Source: an uncultured Clostridia bacterium
Lineage (GTDB): Bacteria > Bacillota > Clostridia > Christensenellales > CAG-314
Length of the DNA stretch: 62,594 nt
Direction: 5' to 3'
NCBI GenBank assembly: GCA_947589685.1
Contig: CANQCN010000003.1
Coordinates: forward strand, 1-62,594
How positions within the stretch are numbered: position 1 is the stretch's first letter; every line of letters begins with the position of its first letter. Below, piece after piece: positions 1,460 to 54,413 of the stretch. The notes beneath the pieces are model-generated. The model searched no databases. It worked only from the letters and a program-made list of their open reading frames with translations, and was not told where the DNA came from. The position numbers and the translations under genes were made by a program.

Positions 1460-2848
1460 TCAAGCCAGGTATATAGTCCCCGTCTTTTGCGCCTCGTCCA
1501 GCAAACCTTGGGTGTAGCCCGCCGTGCTGAAAACTATGTATCGAACATTGGTTGCGCCCGTCAGTTGGCATATCGCATTTGTCTTTGCTTGTAAGTCGTG
1601 CAATACGGATAGTCCCTTTGGCGAATCGGTAAATTTGCATTCTCCCAACACAAGATTTTTGCCGACCGTGTCAATGGCGACGATATCGATCTCTCCTGTT
1701 TTTGAGCCCCAATACCTGCCTACTTTATCAAAGCGGAAATCCCAGACGTTTGCCGCAGAAAGCTCCCACATTTTGTCTCGACAGACGTCCTCGTAAACAA
1801 AGGAAACAAAGTTTTGCACAAAGCCTTTTTTTATTTGCGACAAAACATATTCTGTTTCGCCCTTTTCGAGATAGGCTCTGTACGGATAAACAAATTTGAA
1901 CCAAAATGCGATGAAATTGTCCGTTATGCGATAAAGTCCGCTTTTGCTCTTTTCGGGCGCAGGCTCGGTGACGGGGACTTCGCGCTCTATCAAATCGAGA
2001 TCGGTAAGTACCTTCAAATATTTGGTCAGACTTGTTTGCTTGGCTCCCAAGCATGCGGCTATATCCGAAAGCTTGCGATTGCCCATTGCGATCGCCTTGA
2101 TGAGAGAAAAGTAACTGCCTATTTCGCTTACTTCCTTTTGCAACAAAAAGTAGGGCTCTTCGTACAGAAAGCTTTGTGCGTTTAATATATTTTGTCTTAT
2201 CGCGGTATATATATCGTCGTATCCGCGAAATGTTTCGATATACTTCGGGACCCCGCCCGTCACCGCAAAAAACGGCAACAGCTCTTTGTCGCTTTTTCCG
2301 TCATAAAACTCATTGTAGTGCTTAAAGGAAATTTGCTTCAACCTAATTTGCGCCGTTCTTCTGCCGTACAAAGGGCTTGCGTAGTCGAGCGTCTGCGATT
2401 TCATCAGCGACACGAGCGAACCGCACAAAATAAGCATTATATTTGCGTCTTTAAGCATTGTGTCCCAAATTTTTTGCAATACGGACGGAAAAGCCGAATT
2501 GGACTGCCCGATATATTGAAATTCGTCAAACACAACGATCTTTTTGCTTTCCGTTTGGTGGGCAAGCAACGTTTTGAATATGGTAAACCAATCCGCCGTC
2601 GCGGAACGAAGCAGCTCGTTGCCGACAAAGTCCGCGACCTGCGATTTGAAGTAATTCAGATTTTGGAGTTCGGATTCTTCGGTGGCAAGAAAATAAATCG
2701 AATCCTTGTGCAATTTCAGAAACTCGCTTAAAAGAGCCGTTTTGCCCACGCGCCTGCGCCCGTAAACTATTACCAATGACGACGATTCGCTGTTGTATTG
2801 TTTTTCAAGCGTTTCCAATTCTGTTTTTCGGTTTACGAATTTTTGCAT
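1460..2848 (-). CDS. Archaeal-type AAA ATPase with wHTH and C-terminal DUF234 / PD-(D/E)xK-like domain
   Basis: FVNRKTEL start, Walker A GRRRVGKT, Walker B VFDEFQ, C-terminal EIDIVA...LGECKF. Start moved to the ATG at 2848. Confidence 0.88.
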   Translation of the reverse strand: MQKFVNRKTELETLEKQYNSESSSLVIVYGRRRVGKTALLSEFLKLHKDSIYFLATEESELQNLNYFKSQVADFVGNELLRSATADWFTIFKTLLAHQTESKKIVVFDEFQYIGQSNSAFPSVLQKIWDTMLKDANIMLILCGSLVSLMKSQTLDYASPLYGRRTAQIRLKQISFKHYNEFYDGKSDKELLPFFAVTGGVPKYIETFRGYDDIYTAIRQNILNAQSFLYEEPYFLLQKEVSEIGSYFSLIKAIAMGNRKLSDIAACLGAKQTSLTKYLKVLTDLDLIEREVPVTEPAPEKSKSGLYRITDNFIAFWFKFVYPYRAYLEKGETEYVLSQIKKGFVQNFVSFVYEDVCRDKMWELSAANVWDFRFDKVGRYWGSKTGEIDIVAIDTVGKNLVLGECKFTDSPKGLSVLHDLQAKTNAICQLTGATNVRYIVFSTAGYTQGLLDEAQKTGTIYLA

Positions 2849-3115
2849 AATATCACCTTTTTTGTCCTTGTTTATTATTATACCCAAAATTATAATAATT
2901 GCAAGCATATTTTGATTTTTGTTGAAAATTTGTTTTCACAGCGAAAAAAAAGCCGTTTTTCCGCGCACGCGAGGCGACGCAAGTGCCAAACGACCCTTTT
3001 TGCTTGTTGCCGTCACGCCCGATTTATTTGTGGGTGCAAGTGCATTTTCGCTTGCAAAATTGCTCATACTGTTGTACAATAGCATTGCAAAAAAATTTCA
3101 ACAAGGAGATATGTC

Positions 3116-3298
3116 ATGATAACAAAGGATATGAAAATTGTCGAAGTGTTACAGGTGAAGCCTGAGGCTGCGCGCGTGTTCGGACGCTACGGCATGGGTT
3201 GCATTCATTGCCTCATGGCTCATACCGAAACCGTCGAAGAGGCTGCGGCAGTTCACGGCGTGGACGTAAACGATATGCTCGCCGAGCTTAACGCCTGA
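3116..3298 (+). CDS. DUF1858 family small protein
   Basis: 60 aa, MITKDM...GMGCIHC...ETVEEAAAVHG, AAGGAG RBS. Confidence 0.88.
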   Translation: MITKDMKIVEVLQVKPEAARVFGRYGMGCIHCLMAHTETVEEAAAVHGVDVNDMLAELNA

Positions 3299-3299
3299 C

Positions 3300-3344
3300 G
3301 CAAAAAATTTTCTTCCCGAAACCTTCGGGAAGAATTTTTTTTGC
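3300..3344. terminator. Intrinsic terminator
   Basis: TTCTTCCCGAA/TTCGGGAAGAA stem flanked by A and T tracts. Confidence 0.8.
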
Positions 3345-3415
3345 AAATTTGCGTATTGACTTTGTTTTTGCGCTTTGCTACAATATAATCAGCAATGCGC
3401 ACGGGAGGAAACGCT

Positions 3416-3892
3416 ATGGATAAACAGCAAATTTATGCAAGATCCTTGCAAGTAATGGAGGAAAATTTCAATCACGTGGTGGAGATGAGCGTGGCTTCCG
3501 CCGCCGACGGCGAAGTGGCAGCGCGGGATCTCAACGCTTACTATCATCAGGGCAAATTTTACGTGTTGGGCAAAAAGGGCAACACTTTGCTCGAACATAT
3601 CGCCAAGTGCCCCAATGTGGGCTTGTGCCACGGCTCGCACAATATGCAGGGAGTCGCCCGCAGCCTCGGTCATCCGTTGGATCAGCAAAACGCCTCCTTG
3701 CGCAAGACGCTCAAAAAGCAATTCGGGCTAAACTACTCCGATTACGTTACGGAGTCCAACCCCGATATGCGGATAGTGGAGATCACTCTCACAAAGGCGG
3801 AGACCTACACCCGTTATCATCGCTACGAAATCGATTTTGTGGCTCAAATCGCCGACCGCGATCACACCATACCGCTGTTTCTTTACAGATGA
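3416..3892 (+). CDS. Pyridoxamine 5'-phosphate oxidase-like FMN-binding split-barrel protein
   Basis: MSVASA...ARDLNAYYHQGKFYVL...IAKCPNVGLC pattern, GGAGG RBS before ATG 3416. Confidence 0.7.
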   Translation: MDKQQIYARSLQVMEENFNHVVEMSVASAADGEVAARDLNAYYHQGKFYVLGKKGNTLLEHIAKCPNVGLCHGSHNMQGVARSLGHPLDQQNASLRKTLKKQFGLNYSDYVTESNPDMRIVEITLTKAETYTRYHRYEIDFVAQIADRDHTIPLFLYR

Positions 3893-3917
3893 TCTCGCGG
3901 ATATGAATTTTTAAAAT

Positions 3918-3965
3918 AAAATTGTCCTGCAATATGAAGTACGATTCGTTTTGCAGGACAATTTT
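3918..3965. terminator. Bidirectional terminator between convergent genes
   Basis: AAAATTGTCCTGCAA / TTGCAGGACAATTTT inverted repeat. Confidence 0.7.
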
Positions 3966-4042
3966 GTGTTTGGGATTAAATTATTTTATTTACCACTATA
4001 TTTGTAATGCAAGGCAGTGCGGTCAAATCGGTATCGCGGCGA

Positions 4043-5269
4043 CTATGCCTTGTTGACGATTTTAGCTTTGTACACAAGGTACTTATGCTTACCGAACTCA
4101 AACAAACCTTTTTCCGTTACGCCGAGAAATCCGTTGTTCAGCACTTCAAATATATTGCAGGAAACGGCAAATTCGGGAAGCTTTCCCAGCAGCTTGCCGT
4201 CCTCATAGAGGTAGGCTGTCATAACGGGCATACTTATATCTCCGCTGGGGGTCATGTCTCCTCCGCCCGTATCGGAAATATATATTGCCCTGCCGGTTAC
4301 GATTTCGGCAAGATCCTTTGCCGTGTTTACTATGTCCAAACCGCTTGCGCCCACGTTGGGTACGCCGTTGTAGCTTGCGGCGGCGGAGCCAAGGTTCGCA
4401 GTGTTGTATTGCGCGGCGGATTTTTTGCAGGTGAGCAATCTTTCCAAAACGCCGTTTTTGACAAGGTAGTTTACATAGCCGTCGTTTACTACGCCTTCGG
4501 CATCGAAAAACGGCAAATTTATTTGCTCGGCGGGGTTGCGGTTGATTGCAAGCGAAAGCTTGTCGCTGAAAAGCTTTTGTCCCAGCTTGCCGTCAAACAG
4601 AGAAGCATGGTTGAAGTACAGATCGGCGATCAGGTGTTGGATAGCGTATTGCAACGGTTCAAATCCGCCTATCACCGTCACTTCCTCCTCTTGGACGTGG
4701 GGCAATTTTGTCAAAAAGGCGTCGCACACGAGCTTGACGTCGCGGCAAATGGCGTCCTCGTCGAAGTCGAGACTTTCGCAGCCGTAGCCTTCGTCCATTA
4801 TGTTGGGCGAACCTTTGAGCTTGATCGCCAACGAAAGCAAAAATTGATTGCCGCGATAGAGGTAGCGTTCGCCGTCGCTGTTTTCGTAGCTGTCCTCGCT
4901 GCTGTTGAGCTGTACCTTGTTGGAGAACAAAAACTGCGGATTTTCCGCCCCCAATCTGTCAAGAAGATGCTGAACGGCAGGAATAAAGTCTTGTTCGTCA
5001 AAAACGTGCTTTGTGGCGTCTATCGTCAAGGTGCGTTTGTCTGTATGCGTTTCGGGATAGTCGATTCCCTGCGCCAGCTTGGCGGTCGCCGACTGTTCCA
5101 GCTCTGTCCAATTTGCTTCGCCGAGAGAGCCTTCGACCCCTATCATGCCTTGGTCGTATATGCGAAACGTGTTTTGCGTGCTGTTGTTTATACGCAAGCT
5201 TTCTACGTGATTCGCCACTACGTTGAGACATCTGTTAGATTCTTTTGATATCAATTTTTCCGTTTTCAT
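4043..5269 (-). CDS. TldD/PmbA family, PmbA(TldE)-like subunit
   Basis: PFFDAEG...LVKNGVL motif, no HExxxH, directly downstream of tldD. Confidence 0.8.
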   Translation of the reverse strand: MKTEKLISKESNRCLNVVANHVESLRINNSTQNTFRIYDQGMIGVEGSLGEANWTELEQSATAKLAQGIDYPETHTDKRTLTIDATKHVFDEQDFIPAVQHLLDRLGAENPQFLFSNKVQLNSSEDSYENSDGERYLYRGNQFLLSLAIKLKGSPNIMDEGYGCESLDFDEDAICRDVKLVCDAFLTKLPHVQEEEVTVIGGFEPLQYAIQHLIADLYFNHASLFDGKLGQKLFSDKLSLAINRNPAEQINLPFFDAEGVVNDGYVNYLVKNGVLERLLTCKKSAAQYNTANLGSAAASYNGVPNVGASGLDIVNTAKDLAEIVTGRAIYISDTGGGDMTPSGDISMPVMTAYLYEDGKLLGKLPEFAVSCNIFEVLNNGFLGVTEKGLFEFGKHKYLVYKAKIVNKA

Positions 5270-5280
5270 ACGACGCCTCC

Positions 5281-6615
5281 TTATTGCACGTTCATTTTGG
5301 ACACGCGAATATGCGGTCCGCCCATTCCTACGTTGAGTGGGTATTGTTCCATTTTGCCGCAGCCGCCGGTTACAAAACTCAGCAGCTCTCTGTCGTTACC
5401 GACGCCGTCGATAAGTCCCAGCGTTTCAAACACGTTGCCGGTCAGTACTGCTATTTTGACGGGGTCTCCCACCTTGCCGTCCACTATTTCGTAGGCTATG
5501 CTGGGAGCGATCGTAAACGTTGACATTCCGCTGCCGTGCTTGACGTCGTAGATGTAGTAGCCGTGCTTTATCGGGGCGATAAGCTCGTCAAAGGTGCTGT
5601 CGCCCGCCTCCACAAAGGTGGTGGTCATGCGCACGATTGGTTCGTAGTCGCAGTTGATGGCGCGCGCATTTCCCGTAAGTTGTTCATTCAATGCGGCGGC
5701 GGTGGTTGCGCTGTGCAGCCTTCCGGAAAGAACGCCGTTTTTGATCAGATAGGTATCCGTAGCCGCGGTGCCTTCGTCGTCGTAGGGCACATAGCCGCTG
5801 CCCTCAAACACGCCGCTTTCGCGAATGGTAAGTATCGGGCTTCCCACCCGTTTGCCGATGGTCCATTCCTTTGCCATAGCCTCGTCGCCCAGCATAAAGT
5901 CGCTTTCCGACTTATGCCCGAAGCTTTCGTGCGCAAATACGCCCGTAACTATCGGAGCAAGCACCACGGGATAGCTGCCCGCCTCAACGGGCTTGGCGCG
6001 TTGTATGTAGTCCTCGCAGCGTGCGACAAAGTCGTGCAGCTCCTCGTCGGTGTATTTAAGCAGCGAAAATTCCGTGCGCGCCTTGCTCAGCTGTTCCTGC
6101 ATGGTATCCTCTCCATAAGCAAACGCCATACCGTAAGCTACGCCGCAGGTTTGAAAGTCGTATTTGATATCCGCACCCTTGGAAGAGTAAAATTCGTACA
6201 AGGAGTATCTGTCAAGATACTGTGCGCTTTTGTAATTGCACAGAGAACCTGTCAGCTTGCCATCCGTTTCCGTGATGAGCTTCAATTTTTGTTCAAACGG
6301 AACGTCTTTCACACAGCGATCGGCAAACACGATTTTTACGTCCTCGTTTACCTGGTAGCGCGAAACTATCGGATTGCTTTCGATATTTTCGTCGGCATGC
6401 GCGTAGGAGTACAATTCGTCCAGCGCCTGTTGAATTGCGTTAACGTCGTCGGTGGAAGTGTAGTACCACATTTTCCCGTCAAACACGCGAACAAAAGCTT
6501 TTTTCTCGGCGGTCACCTTGGCTTCGTGCAGCTGTCCGTTTTGCAAGCGGATTTGTGTTGCAAAGCGATCCTCTATACGCACGTCGGAGTAAAAGCCTTT
6601 TTGAAATTTGTACAT
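5281..6615 (-). CDS. tldD: TldD family metalloprotease
   Basis: HESFGH zinc motif, YDDEG, PIVRMTTT, GGCGK. GGAGG RBS before ATG 6615. Confidence 0.9.
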   Translation of the reverse strand: MYKFQKGFYSDVRIEDRFATQIRLQNGQLHEAKVTAEKKAFVRVFDGKMWYYTSTDDVNAIQQALDELYSYAHADENIESNPIVSRYQVNEDVKIVFADRCVKDVPFEQKLKLITETDGKLTGSLCNYKSAQYLDRYSLYEFYSSKGADIKYDFQTCGVAYGMAFAYGEDTMQEQLSKARTEFSLLKYTDEELHDFVARCEDYIQRAKPVEAGSYPVVLAPIVTGVFAHESFGHKSESDFMLGDEAMAKEWTIGKRVGSPILTIRESGVFEGSGYVPYDDEGTAATDTYLIKNGVLSGRLHSATTAAALNEQLTGNARAINCDYEPIVRMTTTFVEAGDSTFDELIAPIKHGYYIYDVKHGSGMSTFTIAPSIAYEIVDGKVGDPVKIAVLTGNVFETLGLIDGVGNDRELLSFVTGGCGKMEQYPLNVGMGGPHIRVSKMNVQ

Positions 6616-6770
6616 AGTGCCTCCTTTATATTTTTTTGTTAAATTATAATCTTTTTTGCGCATTGTGTCAATCGTATGTCCGCACACGCGCTTTGTCAAA
6701 ATGGTATGGACAAATCGGGCGATATAGTGTATACTTATAAAAAGTTATTTTGAAAGAAACGGAGAGAAAT

Positions 6771-7169
6771 ATGCTTTTTGCGACGGCTTTTGTCGATTGG
6801 TTTCCATGGGCGCTGTCGGTGATAGCGCTTGCGGCGTTGATCGCCCTTGCCGTGCGGTTTGTTTTGCTGTACCGCAGCATGAAGAGGGAAAAGCTGGATC
6901 GTATCGCCGCCTCGCGAGAGGAAAACGCCACTTTGCGGATAGAGGGCGACTTCTTTGTGATGACTGCGCTGCTTGCGTACCACGTGGGTGCGGGCAAGCA
7001 GCTTGCCGCGGGCAAATATACGCTTAAAACGCAGGATGGGGGCGAAATTTCATTGCAGATCAACGGCGTTGTGGCGGATTTTGCGGACGGCGAAACGATC
7101 TGTCTCAAAGAGGGCGACGTTATCCGTGCGGAAAAGGACGTCGGGTTGAAGGTTTCGGAGGATATTTGA
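6771..7169 (+). CDS. Hypothetical single-pass membrane protein
   Basis: N-terminal hydrophobic helix, GGAGA RBS, stop abuts ung start. Confidence 0.7.
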   Translation: MLFATAFVDWFPWALSVIALAALIALAVRFVLLYRSMKREKLDRIAASREENATLRIEGDFFVMTALLAYHVGAGKQLAAGKYTLKTQDGGEISLQINGVVADFADGETICLKEGDVIRAEKDVGLKVSEDI

Positions 7170-7829
7170 ATGGGGCGCAGTTACAACGGATGGGACGAGT
7201 TGTTTCTCGGAGAATTTGCCAAACCGTATTTTGTCGAGCTTAAAAAGTTTTTGGTGGAGGAATATGCCTCCAAGCGCGTTTATCCGCCCAAAAGACTTAT
7301 CCTCAACGCCTTCGATCACACGGCATACGACGACGTAAACGTCGTAATATTGGGGCAGGACCCCTATTACAATCCGGGACAGGCAATGGGAATGAGCTTT
7401 TCCGTGCCGCAAGGCGTCGACGTGCCTATGAGCCTCGTCAACATTTTCCGCGAGATAGAGAACGACACGGGCAGTCCCAGCTGTATAAAGGGCGGCGACC
7501 TCACTCCGTGGGCGGAGCAGGGCGTGTTGCTTATGAACACGGTACTCACCGTGGTGGAAGGACGACCCAATTCGCACAAGGACAAGGGTTGGGAGATATT
7601 TACCGACGCGGTGATAAAGTATCTTAACAAAAGACGGCGCGGAATGGTGTTTATGTTGTGGGGACGCAACGCCTACGCCAAAAAGTCGCTTATCGCCAAC
7701 CCGCAGCATTTGGTGCTTACTGCGCCCCATCCAAGCCCTCTTTCGGCATACGCGGGGTTTTTCGGCTGCAAGCATTTTTCCCAAGCAAACGAATTTCTTG
7801 CCCGACAGGGTAAATTTGTGAGGTGGTAG
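7170..7829 (+). CDS. ung: Uracil-DNA glycosylase family 1
   Basis: ILGQDPY, GVLLMNTVLTV and HPSPLSA motifs. Confidence 0.97.
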   Translation: MGRSYNGWDELFLGEFAKPYFVELKKFLVEEYASKRVYPPKRLILNAFDHTAYDDVNVVILGQDPYYNPGQAMGMSFSVPQGVDVPMSLVNIFREIENDTGSPSCIKGGDLTPWAEQGVLLMNTVLTVVEGRPNSHKDKGWEIFTDAVIKYLNKRRRGMVFMLWGRNAYAKKSLIANPQHLVLTAPHPSPLSAYAGFFGCKHFSQANEFLARQGKFVRW

Positions 7830-7845
7830 TACGAGTAAAGGAATT

Positions 7846-8613
7846 TTGTTGATACACGGTTATCTGACCACGACGGAGGACTTCGGCAGATTGTACGATT
7901 ACCTCGGTTGTTACGACGAGGTCTGTCCCGTGGAGATCCCCGGACACAACGGCAAAGTGGATATGCGCAAGTTTACGGTGGAAAGTACGCAAACTACCGT
8001 TATGAACGCTTTTGACGCGCTTGCAAGCAAGCACGAACAAGTGGACGTGGTGGGGTTTTCTATGGGCGGCGCATTGGCGAGCTGGCTGTGCGCGTTGCGC
8101 AAGGTACACCGCGCGGTGCTTATATCTCCCGCAAACAAGTTTCTCAATCCCGCTTTGCCGATAGAAGCGTTAAAGTTTTACGGCAAGCTTACCGAAAACG
8201 CTTACAAGAGTGCGGACGGCGTAATGAGCAGACGCGACGCAGTCAAAAAGGCATGGGCGCCGTACGAAGAGAATATGTCCGTGGCGGGCAAAATAGCCAT
8301 GCAGCGCACCTTTCGCTATATGACTCCGCGCAATCTGCACGTGTTTGACGAGTTGATGAAGCAAGCGGACGAGTGGGTGCAATCCACCGATCCGCAAACG
8401 CCCGTATTGATACTGTGGGGCAAGCTGGACGAGCTGGTTCCGCAAAAGTCGTCGGAGTTTTTGCTCAAACATTTTTCCAATGCGCAGGTAAAGATATATC
8501 CCGACGTGGGGCATGCCATGCTGTACACCAACCGCGACCACGTCATCATCAAGGACGCGATGGATTTCCTCACCGAAGGCGCGTTTGACGTCGAGGTGCC
8601 GCCGCGCGCTTGA
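7846..8613 (+). CDS. Alpha/beta hydrolase (carboxylesterase-like); true start may be ACG at 7831
   Basis: LIHG, GFSMGG nucleophile elbow, WGKLDELVP (Asp) and VGH (His). Confidence 0.88.
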   Translation: MLIHGYLTTTEDFGRLYDYLGCYDEVCPVEIPGHNGKVDMRKFTVESTQTTVMNAFDALASKHEQVDVVGFSMGGALASWLCALRKVHRAVLISPANKFLNPALPIEALKFYGKLTENAYKSADGVMSRRDAVKKAWAPYEENMSVAGKIAMQRTFRYMTPRNLHVFDELMKQADEWVQSTDPQTPVLILWGKLDELVPQKSSEFLLKHFSNAQVKIYPDVGHAMLYTNRDHVIIKDAMDFLTEGAFDVEVPPRA

Positions 8614-48886: not shown

Positions 48887-49208
48887 ACATATGGAAATTT
48901 TCAAACAAGCGGTTTGGCAATCGGCTGAACCGCTTGATATTATGTATACGACCGTATTTGCAAAAAGCGGTCCGAAAGACAACGACCGAATACAATAAAG
49001 CCGTGAGTGAGTTTTATGCTATGCTCCTACCTGTTCAAGCGAAAAATCCGTTTGGAATGTGAAAAATGTTATGATAATACCCGCCGTCCAATTTTGAAGA
49101 TATATAGAAGAGCGCAAAAAAAACATATTCCGTAAAAAAATTTTTACGGAATATACTCCAAAAGATGTTTTTTGTTTGCATATATATCTTTTTTGTTTTA
49201 TAATATTA

Positions 49209-49703
49209 TTAAATAATAGCGATCGATCCCGATTCGTGTCGGAACGTAAAAAAGTAAGCCGCGGTAAAAGCGAGATTTACAAAAATCATCAGCAGTATTC
49301 CGAATATCATCTGTTCTACGTTAAACGGAAGTCCGAGCCAATTGAAGAAATATGCCGATAAAAACATTACCACGGTAAGGGCAAGCGCCGCTACGGCGGA
49401 CAAGCTCACCGACACAATGCCCACAATGTACGGGGTCCCGTCCCACTTGAAAACGAGATTTTTCATAAGTAATGTCGGTTCTTTGAACGAGCGTATGATA
49501 AATCCCGCAATGGAGCCTTCGAAAAGCAACGAAAAAAGCACCGTTATCAACACCAAAATGTCGTCGAATTTTACCCCGACTCTAAAACATTGGACAAGAT
49601 TTGCCACAAGCTGGTATACCATAAACAAGCCTACCGCTACGGTACAGCATAGGTAAATTATTTTGAATACAATGGCTTTGCGAGGTATATATTTGTATTG
49701 CAT
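49209..49703 (-). CDS. Hypothetical four-TM membrane protein
   Basis: Four hydrophobic helices, GGAG-like RBS. Confidence 0.7.
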   Translation of the reverse strand: MQYKYIPRKAIVFKIIYLCCTVAVGLFMVYQLVANLVQCFRVGVKFDDILVLITVLFSLLFEGSIAGFIIRSFKEPTLLMKNLVFKWDGTPYIVGIVSVSLSAVAALALTVVMFLSAYFFNWLGLPFNVEQMIFGILLMIFVNLAFTAAYFFTFRHESGSIAII

Positions 49704-49786
49704 TTTCTCACCCACAAAAGAATTATCACAATTATACAACGTAAATCACAGCCTGTCAATATCAAGCTCGAATCAAGGAGATACTT

Positions 49787-51481: not shown

Positions 51482-51524
51482 CTTGCTTCGTTTGCGTCAC
51501 TTTTGCAAAACAGCGCAAAAGTTG

Positions 51525-51553
51525 TTGACAATATTCGTTTTCTTTGTTACAAT
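51525..51553 (+). promoter_or_regulatory. sigma-A promoter of the tRNA cluster
   Basis: TTGACA-17-TACAAT with extended TG. Confidence 0.8.
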
Positions 51554-51585
51554 AAATAGGCTTTTGACAGTAGCGGAAGCAGTAT

Positions 51586-51662
51586 GGCGGCGTAGCTTAG
51601 TTGGTTATAGCGGCCGGTTCATACCCGGCAGGTCGTTGGTTCGAATCCGACCGCCGCTACCA
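51586..51662 (+). tRNA. tRNA-Met (CAT), elongator-type
   Basis: Cloverleaf, anticodon arm GCCGG-TTCATAC-CCGGC, encoded CCA, no initiator GGG/CCC stem. Confidence 0.93.
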
Positions 51663-51669
51663 CAAATAT

Positions 51670-51745
51670 GGCTCCTTGGTCAAGCGGTCTAAGACATCGC
51701 CCTTTCACGGCGGTAACACGAGTTCGATTCTCGTAGGAGTCACCA
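51670..51745 (+). tRNA. tRNA-Glu (TTC)
   Basis: Anticodon loop CTTTCAC, TTCG T-loop, CCA. Confidence 0.95.
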
Positions 51746-51747
51746 AT

Positions 51748-51823
51748 GGGGAGTTAGCTCAGTTGGGAGAGCATCTGCCTTACAAGCAGGGGGTCACAGG
51801 TTCGAGCCCTGTACTCCCCACCA
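51748..51823 (+). tRNA. tRNA-Val (TAC)
   Basis: Anticodon loop CTTACAA, TTCGA T-loop, CCA. Confidence 0.95.
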
Positions 51824-51854
51824 AGCGCGCGGGCTCGCTTTGAGGTCGCACAAG

Positions 51855-51886
51855 AAAGGAACGCACAGGTTTGCGTTCCTTTTCTT
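51855..51886 (+). terminator. Terminator after the tRNA cluster
   Basis: AAAGGAACGCA/TGCGTTCCTTT stem plus T tract. Confidence 0.8.
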
Positions 51887-52232
51887 ATGCTCCTATTTGC
51901 TTCGCCCGCCGCGCGGTGTCTCGTGCAGGAAGTTGAAATAATGTAGCGCTTCGTGCTTGTCGCATTTAGCGTATCATCGCGAAAAAATAATTGTTGCTTT
52001 CTACCACTGCGGGCGGCATTTGGAAAGTCGCTTGCGCAAAAGCCCGCCCTTGTGCATTTGACTACCAACTGCACACTGTGCAGATTGGCTTTACGCCAAA
52101 TGTGATTACTCAGCTGACACGGAGACGAGTCCTGTATCGATAGAAAAACAATCACACAAAACACCTCTTTATTGACTTTTGTCGAACGTTGTGTTATGCT
52201 TTGATTATATTCTATTATTTGAGGTAATCGCC

Positions 52233-53132
52233 ATGGATATGAATGAAAGGTGGGACAAAATTTTGGCTGCTGTAAAAGAAAGCTATCAAGAAGCTATTGC
52301 AATCGCTACCACGAAGGGTGTTACTCAGACTTGTGCGGTGGCAATGCGTACAACCATTGAAGGGCTGGTTAAACTTTTTTATTTGAAGTTTTATAGAAAA
52401 ACATTCGAAAATGAAAAATTCAAACTGGGTAAGGCCATACGGGATCCGAATTTTACCCGACATATTCCGCGAACTTCTCCTAAATGGCAAGAAATAGATG
52501 ACATACGGTTTGCTGGAAATAACCAAGTGCATTTTGTTTTTGACCAAAACACTGTTCAGAATAACATAAAAAAATTTAATAGTGCCGTGCAAACGCTACA
52601 AAACAAATTGGAAATCAATATTATGTCCGACGTACCCGCAGAGGATAAACCTAATGGACCCGTATTGGAAACACAAAGTAAAAGTCCAATCAAAAATCCC
52701 TCAGAACCAAACATCAAAGGAACTGTTCAACGAGGAGAAGAGTTTCATGTACAAACAAATGCGGCATTGCTCAATTTATTATTGGGTACAAACTATAAAG
52801 CATGGATGAAATGTTGGATATATTTAACTAAAGATCCTGATTACCAGCTTGTAATGCTTTCGGAAGGAGAAGTCATCAATGGCTGGACCAATACTTTTGA
52901 AGAGTCTGCAGGGATTTTTCGTGAAGATTTTGTGGATGCACGTGATGAAAAACTTCCTAACCACGAAGGGCTACCTCCGACGTATAGGGCGATTTTCATG
53001 AAATGCGGTAAGGGTAAAGACCGTTATTTTGTTTTTCGTGGTATATACGAGTTGTCAAGAGAAAGTACACCAAATCATAGAATTAGCAAAAGAGTTGCCG
53101 ACAAAGCAGATTTTTCTAAATATCGCCTATAA
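52233..53132 (+). CDS. AT-rich protein: DUF4145/HEPN-like N-terminus, linker, unknown (possibly SRA/PUA-like) C-terminus
   Basis: MRTTIEGLV and IRFAGNNQVH (RxxGNxxxH) motifs. TTGACT-17-TATGCT promoter at 52172-52200 and GAGGT RBS. Confidence 0.7.
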   Translation: MDMNERWDKILAAVKESYQEAIAIATTKGVTQTCAVAMRTTIEGLVKLFYLKFYRKTFENEKFKLGKAIRDPNFTRHIPRTSPKWQEIDDIRFAGNNQVHFVFDQNTVQNNIKKFNSAVQTLQNKLEINIMSDVPAEDKPNGPVLETQSKSPIKNPSEPNIKGTVQRGEEFHVQTNAALLNLLLGTNYKAWMKCWIYLTKDPDYQLVMLSEGEVINGWTNTFEESAGIFREDFVDARDEKLPNHEGLPPTYRAIFMKCGKGKDRYFVFRGIYELSRESTPNHRISKRVADKADFSKYRL

Positions 53133-53250
53133 ATAGACCTGACTATAAGCTGTAAGATATATTACGCGATAAATACAATAATAAGCAACAGAAGGGTATT
53201 GCCTATTTGAATTAATGCGACCGGTAATCGTAAAAATTTTCAAATTTGAG
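53133..53250 (+). promoter_or_regulatory. CRISPR leader ending in ATTTGAG
   Basis: AT-rich, ends ...CAAATTTGAG flush with repeat 1, a known type II-A leader-end motif. Confidence 0.75.
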
Positions 53251-53484
53251 GTTTGAGAATGGTGTAATTTCAAATAGGTCTAAAACCTTGTCAACAGCAG
53301 ATTGATAACGATCATAGTTTGAGAATGGTGTAATTTCAAATAGGTCTAAAACCGTACGGAATAGAAATTCGTCAAATATGACGTTTGAGAATGGTGTAAT
53401 TTCAAATAGGTCTAAAACAACCAATATTTTCATATTTTCCTCCTTTGTGTTTGAGAATGGTGTAATTTCAAGTGAGCTTAAAAT
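53251..53484 (+). CRISPR. Orphan type II-like CRISPR array: 4 repeats, 3 spacers
   Basis: 36-nt repeat GTTTGAGAATGGTGTAATTTCAAATAGGTCTAAAAC at 53251, 53317 and 53383, degenerate copy at 53449. Three unique 30-nt spacers. Confidence 0.95.
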
Positions 53485-53615
53485 TCTGCCGATATAAGAT
53501 CCGCAAGGCGTGCTTACGTCGGGTCGACGAGAAGTTGAAATTGAAATTTTTGTGTTTTGCGATATTCGTTTGCTAATCGGCGTAAAAAATGGTATCATTG
53601 TAGCGGAGGAAAGAT

Positions 53616-54413
53616 ATGACCAAACGAATTTGTACAATGCAGGATCTGTCTTGCGTGGGGCAATGTTCTCTTACGGTTGCGTTGCCCATATTGTCCCGTT
53701 ACGGCATAGAGACATGCGTGCTGCCGACGGCGGTGCTGTCCAATCATACGCAGTTCAAAAGTTGGAGCTATCTCGATCTGACGGACGAAATACCCAACAT
53801 TTATCGCGAGTGGGCAAACAGCGGCATAAGCTTCGACGGCTTTGTGCTGGGATACCTTGGCAAGCGGCGTTTGATGAAGCTCGCGGAGGAGCTTTTCGAC
53901 CGTTTCGGTAACGAGGGCGCTCCCGTAGTCATCGATCCCGTGTTTGCCGACGACGGCAAGTTGTACAGCGGTTTTGACGAGCAATACGTGCGCGAAATGG
54001 CAAAGCTAATTGCCCGCGCCGACATCATCGACCCAAACGTCACCGAAGCGTGTTTTCTTACCGACACGCCGTATCAAGCGGACCACGGCAAGGAGTTTGC
54101 GCAAGAGCTTGCGGTCAAGCTCTCGCAACTTACCTCCGCGACGGTGATAATAACGGGCGTGGAGTTTGACGGCGACATCGGCGAGCTTATTTATTCTCAC
54201 GGCAGTTGCACGTACGTCATGCTGCCCAAGCTGGACGCAAAATACCACGGTACGGGCGATATTTTTACGTCGGTGATGAGCGCGCACTATTTTGCGGGAG
54301 AAACGCTTGCAGCAAGCTGTCTTAAAGCGGGGCAATTTGTGGCGGACTGCATGCGCGGTACCGACAAGGCGCACTTTTACGGCGTCAATTTCGAAAAGCA
54401 ATTGGCAAAGTGA
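53616..54413 (+). CDS. pdxK: Pyridoxal/pyridoxamine kinase
   Basis: QDLSCVGQCSL, LPTAVLSNHT, DPVFADDG, PNVTEA, GTGD. Confidence 0.9.
   Translation: MTKRICTMQDLSCVGQCSLTVALPILSRYGIETCVLPTAVLSNHTQFKSWSYLDLTDEIPNIYREWANSGISFDGFVLGYLGKRRLMKLAEELFDRFGNEGAPVVIDPVFADDGKLYSGFDEQYVREMAKLIARADIIDPNVTEACFLTDTPYQADHGKEFAQELAVKLSQLTSATVIITGVEFDGDIGELIYSHGSCTYVMLPKLDAKYHGTGDIFTSVMSAHYFAGETLAASCLKAGQFVADCMRGTDKAHFYGVNFEKQLAK

Follow-up and report, generated by a model that had tools for sequence, protein, structure and literature searches.

A CRISPR array that lies directly behind a single gene, with no cas genes beside it, raises the question of whether the two work together or only adjoin each other. Such an arrangement is found in the 62,594-nucleotide stretch of DNA analysed in this study (the window), which is the whole of contig C3 (CANQCN010000003.1) of GCA_947589685.1, a draft assembly from an uncultured Clostridia bacterium (1.48 Mb, 79 contigs, 94.88% complete; G000 below). 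Behind a tRNA-Val gene the window carries an open reading frame (ORF) for a 299-residue protein, P0001, and on the same strand a short type II-A array. Comparison with the other members of a set of 82 genomes of one family, G000 included, and structural modelling of P0001 together lead us to the reading that this is probably a defence hotspot in which an orphan type II-A array stands next to a modification-sensing HEPN defence protein encoded by one gene. A cas-less array that served a single HEPN effector would be a new kind of CRISPR system; the evidence points instead to an ordinary orphan array, and it is quite probable that this array has no functional tie to the P0001 gene.

The origin of the array is the clearest part of the answer. 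The repeat of the window was found in seven of the 82 family genomes, G000 included. Among the six relatives, G027, G030, G033 and G036 (same genus) have 20, 42, 23 and 46 matched repeats and G070 (another genus) has 8, and G032 has one degenerate copy only. In G036, ORFs of 1397, 290, 114 and 226 amino acids (aa) lie directly 5' of the leader and match Cas9_REC (4.9e-104), Cas9_PI and HNH, then Cas1 (5e-24), Cas2 (7e-14) and Csn2 (3.3e-15); the same four-ORF cas9-cas1-cas2-csn2 pattern is present in G030, G027 and G070. The 52-nt leader of the window is identical to that of G030 at 51 of 52 positions and is clearly alignable with those of G027 and G070. It terminates in ...CAAATTTGAG, and ATTTGAG, which we take to be the type II-A leader-anchoring sequence at the leader-repeat junction, ends the leader in the window, G030, G027 and G070 alike. 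An earlier reading made from the sequence only (the sequence-only reading) had assigned the array to type II-A and had placed the ORF where a cas operon normally sits, and the relatives bear this out, with csn2 and the other cas genes preceding the leader at that position.

The likeness to the leaders of the relatives starts exactly at 53199. On the 5' side of this position the window has no similarity at all to their leader regions, which places the break within the leader at a distance of 52 nt from the first repeat. Where the relatives have promoter-like sequences and the csn2 stretch, the window has the 3' flank of the ORF. Judged from these alignments, the 53198/53199 junction looks like a rearrangement scar inside the leader. 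The features of the locus are as follows.

51586-51823: cluster of tRNA-Met, tRNA-Glu and tRNA-Val genes.
51748-51823, + strand: tRNA-Val (TAC), last in the Met-Glu-Val cluster and anchor of the variable site (ARAGORN; Rfam tRNA, 70.3 bits).
51824-52140: conserved post-tRNA segment with the terminator hairpin of the tRNA operon, outside the islet (GC 51.4%; 84% identical to the G036 segment behind tRNA-Val).
52172-52200, + strand: promoter-like TTGACT-17-TATGCT with extended TG, 5' of the ORF (consensus match only, 9 of 12 positions).
52233-53132, + strand: ORF of P0001, 299 aa, with a HEPN-like N-domain, a linker and an SRA-like C-domain.
52233-52640, + strand: N-domain of P0001, residues 1-136, modelled as an all-helical HEPN fold.
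52506-52532, + strand: codons of the P0001 motif R92-x2-G95-N96-x3-H100.
52710-53129, + strand: C-domain of P0001, residues 160-299, modelled as an SRA-like (PUA-superfamily) fold.
53133-53198, + strand: unique 66 nt from the ORF stop to the conserved leader, without a terminator; one weak promoter-like site lies at 53134-53163.
53199-53250, + strand: repeat-proximal type II-A leader, 52 nt, ending ATTTGAG.
53251-53484, + strand: CRISPR array of four repeats and three spacers.
53485-53543: trailer, found in G000 only (similarity to G039, the nearest congener, returns at 53544, in the pdxK promoter region).
53616-54413, + strand: pdxK-like kinase gene (Phos_pyr_kin), the conserved right flank.

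The AT-rich islet with its 299-residue ORF behind tRNA-Val, which the sequence-only reading had pointed out, stands: GC content is 36.5% over 52141-53543 and 50.5% over the G000 genome. The ORF starts at 52233, not 52234; its protein begins MDMNERW, and a GAGG sits 8 nt 5' of the ATG. The same reading had credited the islet with a promoter of its own. The TTGACT-17-TATGCT match is indeed present, though it is weak evidence because the AT-rich stretch exceeds shuffled sequence in such sites (10 promoter-like sites in the region versus 4.1 +/- 1.8 in shuffles). The further remark that the array follows the ORF on the same strand without an obvious terminator agrees with a scan of the 118-nt gap between them, in which no + strand terminator-like site was found, and the 151 nt around this gap fold no better than shuffles (z 0.08). 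Read-through transcription of the array means nothing by itself. An imperfect inverted repeat (52141-52164 and 53552-53575, 24 nt, 75% complementary) flanks the low-GC islet. It was considered as the islet's border and is treated as chance, being AT-rich and having a right arm common to G039, which has other sequence at the site.

Within the array, identical 36-nt repeats occupy 53251-53286, 53317-53352 and 53383-53418 (three matches versus 0 expected in 100 shuffles), and a degenerate fourth follows at 53449-53484. The period is 66 nt, with 30-nt spacers at 53287-53316, 53353-53382 and 53419-53448; the leader end, the 36/30-nt layout and the identity of the first three repeats had thus been described correctly. 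The repeat was not found elsewhere in G000 at three or fewer mismatches and is confined to the array of the window. The end of spacer 2 (53365-53382) is like the leader end (53233-53250) at 13 of 18 positions, and leader plus repeat agrees with spacer 2 plus repeat at 91% over 54 nt, which may be chance in AT-rich DNA or the trace of a leader-repeat duplication.

The sequence-only reading had seen no cas9, cas1, cas2 or csn2 in the window, and this absence now extends to the whole 94.88%-complete assembly. Profile searches of G000 gave 0 matches to Cas9 (TIGR01865) and 0 to Cas1 (PF01867), and tblastn of a congener's Cas9, Cas1, Cas2 and Csn2 gave chance-level matches only (best E 0.019). A search by repeat-likeness found no tracrRNA-like anti-repeat (tracrRNA, trans-activating CRISPR RNA) in G000 besides one solo degenerate repeat, and Rfam gave no tracrRNA match in 51500-53700 of the window. 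The solo repeat was recovered by a looser search: a lone degenerate copy (30 of 36 positions) on contig C24 at about 6689-6724. It edges a low-GC type I restriction-modification (RM) island (HsdM 627-2261, HsdR 2236-5238, HsdS-like 5162-5758) and is a second CRISPR relic in G000. The 1001-aa ORF beside it was considered as a small Cas9 and rejected, as it is the type I HsdR. On the same contig an ORF at 8091-8924 matches Pfam Antibiotic_NAT (aminoglycoside 3-N-acetyltransferase, 2.4e-85) and adjoins a MatE transporter gene.

The spacers gave no sign of a target. With the whole array as query, only chance-level short matches to protospacers were found in GenBank phages; exact 30-mers of the three spacers had 0, 0 and 0 matches in IMG/VR; spacer 1, the only spacer searched in this way, was found at three or fewer mismatches in none of the 81 other family genomes; and within G000 no spacer had a self-target match of more than 17 exact bases or better than 20/22. 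None of the 133 spacers from the arrays of five relatives came within 8 mismatches of the three in the window, and the arrays of these five relatives have no spacers in common.

One explanation for the near-identical repeat and leader, recent horizontal transfer, was rejected because the Cas9 proteins of the four relatives examined share only 52-62% identity. The near-identity is rather a matter of constraint, given how far Cas9 has diverged. The flanks of the relatives' CRISPR-Cas loci map to differing places in G000 (those of G030 to C20, those of G036 to C11 plus the start of C3, those of G027 to C26/C30), from which CRISPR-Cas itself appears to move about within the genus. Remains of CRISPR loci of this type are frequent across the genus. 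Decayed repeat pairs were observed in G036 (C8, about 7100-7200, upstream of cas9) and in G032 (C38, 1857-2021), the latter having no array at three or fewer mismatches (cas genes unsearched there).

Three studies of rabbit-gut and gut metagenomes also supplied DNA sequencing runs in which the stretch is present; no RNA run was listed among them, which carries no information on expression. In run X4, a 563-nt contig equals 52671-53233 without a difference and spans the 53198/53199 junction by 35 nt, so that the junction cannot be put down to an assembly error peculiar to the window. Runs X1 and X3 have contigs (954 and 933 nt) that agree perfectly with the gene as far as 53198 and run on for 694 and 121 nt in sequence that differs from the window. 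From X1 there is also a 4509-nt contig matching 53391-53700; its last spacer is a different one, and 4203 nt upstream are unmatched. The pdxK-covering contigs of X3, X7 and X4 cease matching at 53493-53495. On a plain reading of these contigs, gene and array would be separable within the species and array content would differ between strains, though for strain-level variation at the leader break itself these are hints only.

Of the alternatives, the one that survives best, though it is unlikely, is that the array is in use. Cas9, tracrRNA and adaptation genes would act in trans, coming from the unassembled part of the genome, from the operon of a sister strain or by transfer, and the array would be a memory bank like CRISPR2 of Enterococcus faecalis, which can work with the Cas9 of CRISPR1. 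The points in its favour, together with those on the protein given further below, are what weighs against the reading preferred here. A cas locus could sit in the approximately 5% of G000 that is unassembled in this 79-contig draft, and congeners have Cas9 loci with a near-identical repeat. The intact leader, 51/52 identical to that of a working locus, and the three identical repeats also fit an array still in use. The species may hold cas-plus strains, given the 4509-nt contig of X1 with its other last spacer and its unmatched 4203 nt, and the gene-side contigs of two runs diverge exactly at 53198. However, the searches for TIGR01865, PF01867 and the four Cas proteins came back empty or at chance level in G000, no anti-repeat was found beyond the solo degenerate copy on C24, and the array has only three spacers, versus 7 to 46 in the arrays of five relatives, with no protospacer found for them.

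If the array is an orphan, as is preferred here, the company it keeps is explained by where it lies. The site behind tRNA-Val holds different cargo in different relatives. In G036, about 11 kb separate tRNA-Val from a GNAT gene and include a 1116-aa superfamily 1 (SF1) helicase (PADLOC PDC-S53, 1.9e-276), together with a TIR protein of the PDC-S66/ThsB type and an SPFH/zinc-ribbon protein. Behind tRNA-Val there are a type I RM methylase, its specificity subunit and a KAP NTPase in G030 and an integrase in G034, and in G029 the interval from tRNA-Val to pdxK contains 8 kb of different cargo whose genes are mostly unassigned. In this comparison across relatives, which the sequence-only reading had proposed for the interval from tRNA-Val to pdxK, other defence or mobile cargo follows tRNA-Val in the congeners, and the site would be a defence hotspot in which genes are swapped. 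The proposal of that reading that this is a hotspot from which the cas operon is gone fits these comparative data. ORFs of 1116 aa with equal SF1-helicase domain matches were observed both beside cas9 in G030 (C10, 16470-19820) and at the tRNA-Val hotspot in G036 (C21, 4247-7597).

The 317 nt after tRNA-Val (51824-52140) are kept in G036. On C21 of that genome a segment of about 300 nt of this kind follows three tRNA genes (Val, Val, Ala) within 8 kb (7-487, 2376-2717 and 7752-8104), and dispersed copies occur in G032, G034, G038 and others; G000 has just short partial copies (C20, C53, C58, C30 and C11). Rfam found nothing in the segment at 51824-52140. It is possibly a repeat of integrating elements, either att-like or linked to tRNA genes. 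Elsewhere in the window, a second low-GC patch (33-45%) at 49000-49750 lies upstream of an amylase gene. On its - strand is an ORF of 176 aa (49209-49739) with several hydrophobic stretches and no Pfam match.

The second half of the question is what P0001 is. For the N-domain modelled alone (AlphaFold 2, 16-row alignment), the predicted local distance difference test score (pLDDT) was 86.5 and the predicted template modelling score 0.83. Its best VIA matches are almost all HEPN proteins: 1wol (Z 10.6), 1ufb (10.5), sacsin HEPN (10.2), Csm6 (9.3), AbiA (8.5) and, at the top, 2hsb with Z 12.5, a value that helical bundles can reach through their common arrangement alone. Nearly all top Foldseek rows are HEPN as well, with a probability of about 0.9-1.0, yet with E of at least 0.04. 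Residues R92, G95, N96 and H100 are invariant in all nine of the closest sequences, and R92 is at least 90% conserved in the 16-sequence alignment. The N-domain has a predicted HEPN fold and a catalytic-type Arg...His motif before its last helix, in line with the HEPN/DUF4145 assignment made from the RxxGNxxxH pattern in the sequence-only reading. DUF4145 (PF13643) is the best Pfam match in 7 of 16 relatives (E <=0.1; best 22.2 bits, E 1.5e-4) and none of them reaches the cut-off. P0001 is named DUF4145-like here, not a Pfam member, because its scores lie under the gathering cut-off. In the available portion of PMC3710099, DUF4145 is assigned to the HEPN superfamily and seen fused to restriction endonucleases.

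The C-domain, for which the earlier suggestion was a possible nucleic-acid sensor, could be refined. In the full-length model its pLDDT is 80-95 over most of its length, with 9 assigned strands (7 of at least 5 residues) and 2 helices. VIA matched it to the SRA-like DNA-binding domains of two enzymes specific for 5-hydroxymethylcytosine (5hmC), PvuRts1I (4oky, Z 11.8, 126 aligned, root-mean-square deviation 3.4) and AbaSI (4par, Z 11.5), both well above the next rows, which are AspBHI (7.9), LpnPI (7.6), MspJI (6.6) and the SRA domain of SUVH5 (6.4), and Foldseek also gave AbaSI (E 2.2e-5). The SRA profile PF18491 is matched by 10 of 16 relatives; against its cut-off of 30.2 bits, P0002 scores 29.9 and P0003, P0019, P0036, P0055 and P0084 pass with 32.4 to 63.5. 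On the strength of the model, the C-domain is predicted to be an SRA-like reader of modified cytosine. No C5 DNA methylase (PF00145) was found in G000, and therefore a 5-methylcytosine (5mC) reader would not meet self DNA; this absence is compatible with hosting a modified-cytosine reader.

P0001 belongs to a small family with exchangeable parts. Full-database scoring with P0001 as query gave 94 representatives at E <=0.001 among 1.84 billion, of which 55 are under 200 aa and match the C-domain alone and 8 match both domains; word-index searches with the N-domain and the C-domain separately made one addition, P0101. The nine closest sequences align end to end, and comprise five of 470-480 aa and four of 282-305 aa, P0001 included. 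The 470-480-aa forms have an extra block of about 165 aa between the domains, with a PD...(D/E)xK pattern and an HSDR_N_2 match, which is cleanly absent in P0001 and the other short forms. Two-domain proteins of the short kind appear repeatedly, in several clusters and with identities of 38-72% (P0002 at 72%, P0008, P0009), and more distant short forms of about 300 aa are P0019, P0036, P0055 and P0057. The same C-domain is also fused to TIR (P0025), to a helix-turn-helix (HTH; P0015) and, in the 470-aa forms, to PD-(D/E)xK. P0001 and P0002 form a mosaic, the linker and C-domain being 86-88% identical and the N-domain 56%, equal to the N-domain identity with the 470-aa forms. Going by these alignments, the domains may have recombined separately, or the HEPN part may have evolved faster.

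The family is sparsely and patchily distributed in the collections searched. With P0001 as query, one of the 81 other family genomes gave a match, to the C-domain only (residues 166-282, 31% identity), and the full-length ORF was found in none of the 81. The gene is absent from all six repeat-holding relatives. No relatives were found in JGI metagenome contigs (593 pattern matches) or in IMG/VR (48 pattern matches), tblastn gave no match in GenBank phages or PLSDB plasmids, the ESM Atlas gave no usable match, and a sequence-profile search of the PDB gave 0 matches at E <=10. Among species-representative genomes there are just two relative loci (L033 and L034), both encoding 470-aa forms in uncultured Clostridia, with housekeeping neighbours (histidyl-tRNA synthetase, a sigma factor, STAS, an ABC transporter and tRNA genes). 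Upstream of the homolog at L034 (1-900), the genes of a tRNA cluster have units of 65-80 nt scattered among them, with a CTCCTCTTCCCAAAAAA...TTTTTTGGGAG hairpin at the core of every unit. These tandem units were considered as a CRISPR array and rejected, being hairpin repeats among tRNA genes that are REP- or terminator-like.

On the side of the protein, the points to be set beside those on the array are the following. DUF4145 scores 17.2 bits (E 0.0054) with the N-domain alone and 14.4 bits with full P0001, so that the cut-off of 23.1 bits is not reached. P0001 itself has no match to PF18491 at E <=10. PADLOC and NCBIfam assign it to 0 families, and the ceiling on what the N-domain Z score can prove has been given above. 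Neither arrays nor cas genes were found at either of the two homolog loci, a small sample that consists of 470-aa forms and lies outside the contexts of the short forms.

Some of the same facts could be taken to mean that P0001 is the functionless remnant of a decaying type IV restriction enzyme that has lost its PD-(D/E)xK nuclease, which we regard as improbable. The 470-aa relatives do have an HSDR_N_2 / PD-(D/E)xK block between the domains that P0001 is without, neither PADLOC nor NCBIfam recognises it, and its neighbour, the orphan array, is another relic. However, the frame is open and is preceded by a promoter-like site and a ribosome-binding site, and the short architecture recurs in P0002, P0008, P0009, P0019, P0036, P0055 and P0057. 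Invariant residues lie in both domains (R92, G95, N96 and H100 in nine of nine), and the presence of TIR and HTH in place of HEPN on this C-domain points to a family of modular sensors and effectors.

The weakest explanation is the other one that the sequence-only reading had offered, a compact unit in which CRISPR RNAs (crRNAs) guide or control the HEPN-SRA protein, possibly with Cas9 in trans; gene and array are co-oriented across a 118-nt gap with no predicted terminator, and HEPN RNases are effectors in other CRISPR types (Csm6/Csx1/Cas13), but the unit is very improbable, as in the relatives this repeat and leader are those of a canonical Cas9 system, G000 yielded neither a Cas9 nor a tracrRNA-like anti-repeat, every relative with the repeat is without the gene, the C-domain resembles a modified-DNA reader and not a known crRNA binder, and other samples have the gene with different sequence past a scar-like junction inside the leader. 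That reading had also named what would count against such a unit, namely homologs without arrays and relatives with a cas operon or unrelated cargo at the site; both were found as far as the comparison reached, with arrays at 0 of 2 homolog loci and the contexts of the three closest short forms outside the comparison.

The preferred reading, an orphan array beside a defence gene, can be set out as a mechanism in which two independent things would have come to adjoin in the variable site behind tRNA-Val. The array would have kept the last 52 nt of its leader, three full repeats, three spacers and the degenerate terminal repeat, and would have lost tracrRNA-cas9-cas1-cas2-csn2. With what the G000 assembly holds, neither spacer acquisition nor guided interference would be expected of it, and at most it would be transcribed, either from a weak promoter that it has itself or, unprocessed, at the end of the transcript of the upstream gene. 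P0001 would be a stand-alone, horizontally acquired protein, probably of defence type. Its SRA-like domain may flip out a modified cytosine (5mC, 5hmC or glucosyl-5hmC) in incoming DNA. The DUF4145-type HEPN domain is its sole candidate effector and, by analogy with the defence protein RAZR, would cleave RNA; the output would probably be RNA cleavage after assembly on the target, leading to growth arrest or loss of the invader. The 470-aa relatives resemble ordinary modification-dependent restriction enzymes of type IV, and the short form would keep the sensor with an RNase response in place of DNA cutting. We tentatively propose, as a possibility that falls short of being probable, that P0001 and the short forms are modification-triggered RNases, which would pair type IV logic with an abortive or plasmid-clearing output at the RNA level.

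Both halves of this reading have wider meaning. The array offers a clear example from nature of a type II-A system that has lost the entire cas operon by a break within its leader. Should the short form be active, modification-dependent defence would extend from DNA cutting to RNA cutting, and the family of P0001 would show effector swapping (HEPN, TIR, PD-(D/E)xK, HTH) on one sensor.

Compared with the canonical type II-A loci of G030, G036, G027 and G070, the locus in the window has the same repeat (0-1 mismatch), 30-nt spacers, degenerate terminal repeat and ATTTGAG leader end, but is without the four cas genes, has no detected anti-repeat and has its leader cut 52 nt from the first repeat. 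The available parts of two reports on E. faecalis (PMC4580645, PMC5491264) describe CRISPR2 as likewise a cas-less type II-A array kept in the genome. However, CRISPR2 is there species-wide at a fixed site, whereas for the array in the window no Cas9 was found in G000.

Among restriction enzymes, PvuRts1I/AbaSI and MspJI/AspBHI/LpnPI (type IV) share the SRA-like fold with the C-domain of P0001 and have a DNase domain as in the 470-aa relatives. P0001 differs in having no DNase and a HEPN-like domain instead, and sequence identity is 8-18%. P0001 is therefore like the sensor half of a type IV restriction endonuclease and is not one itself.

Among HEPN proteins the closest parallels are single-gene defence systems, cited here from the portions of the sources that were available. 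RAZR / PD-T7-4 (PMC13017515) and BxaP (PMC10799925) have a DUF4145-type HEPN effector whose R and H are spaced by 8 residues, as they are in P0001. For RAZR, defence requires R146 and H154 of DUF4145, and the protein cleaves single-stranded RNA (PMC13017515). The sensors differ: RAZR binds phage ring proteins through a zinc ribbon, BxaP has a HEAT-like part with DUF4145 N-terminal, and P0001 has an SRA-like domain. Ishtar Ist1/Ist2 (bioRxiv 10.64898/2026.07.06.735840) are described as monogenic, patchy and often near defence genes, with an N-terminal HEPN domain (DUF4145 or DUF3644). Their C-terminal domain, with 5-7 strands, 3 helices and an unassigned function, is not described as SRA-like in the available text, and the comparison with P0001 is one of described architecture only. 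The P0001 family may be in the same class as these anti-plasmid proteins, and the SRA-like reading might then give a function to the unassigned C-domain of HEPN anti-plasmid proteins.

A similar reader-effector logic is reported for PUA-like sensors with swappable effectors (HEPN, TIR, HNH, McrB; bioRxiv 10.64898/2026.01.15.699771). That family, however, has a different PUA-like domain and binds a free modified nucleotide, m6-dAMP, whereas P0001 may read either DNA or a nucleotide. A HEPN-SRA fusion of the P0001 kind is not described in the available part of that report, and no description of a DUF4145-SRA protein was found in the accessible text of the literature that mentions DUF4145. P0001 would be a new addition to the expanding set of HEPN defence proteins that are encoded by one gene, in its case with an SRA-like sensor.

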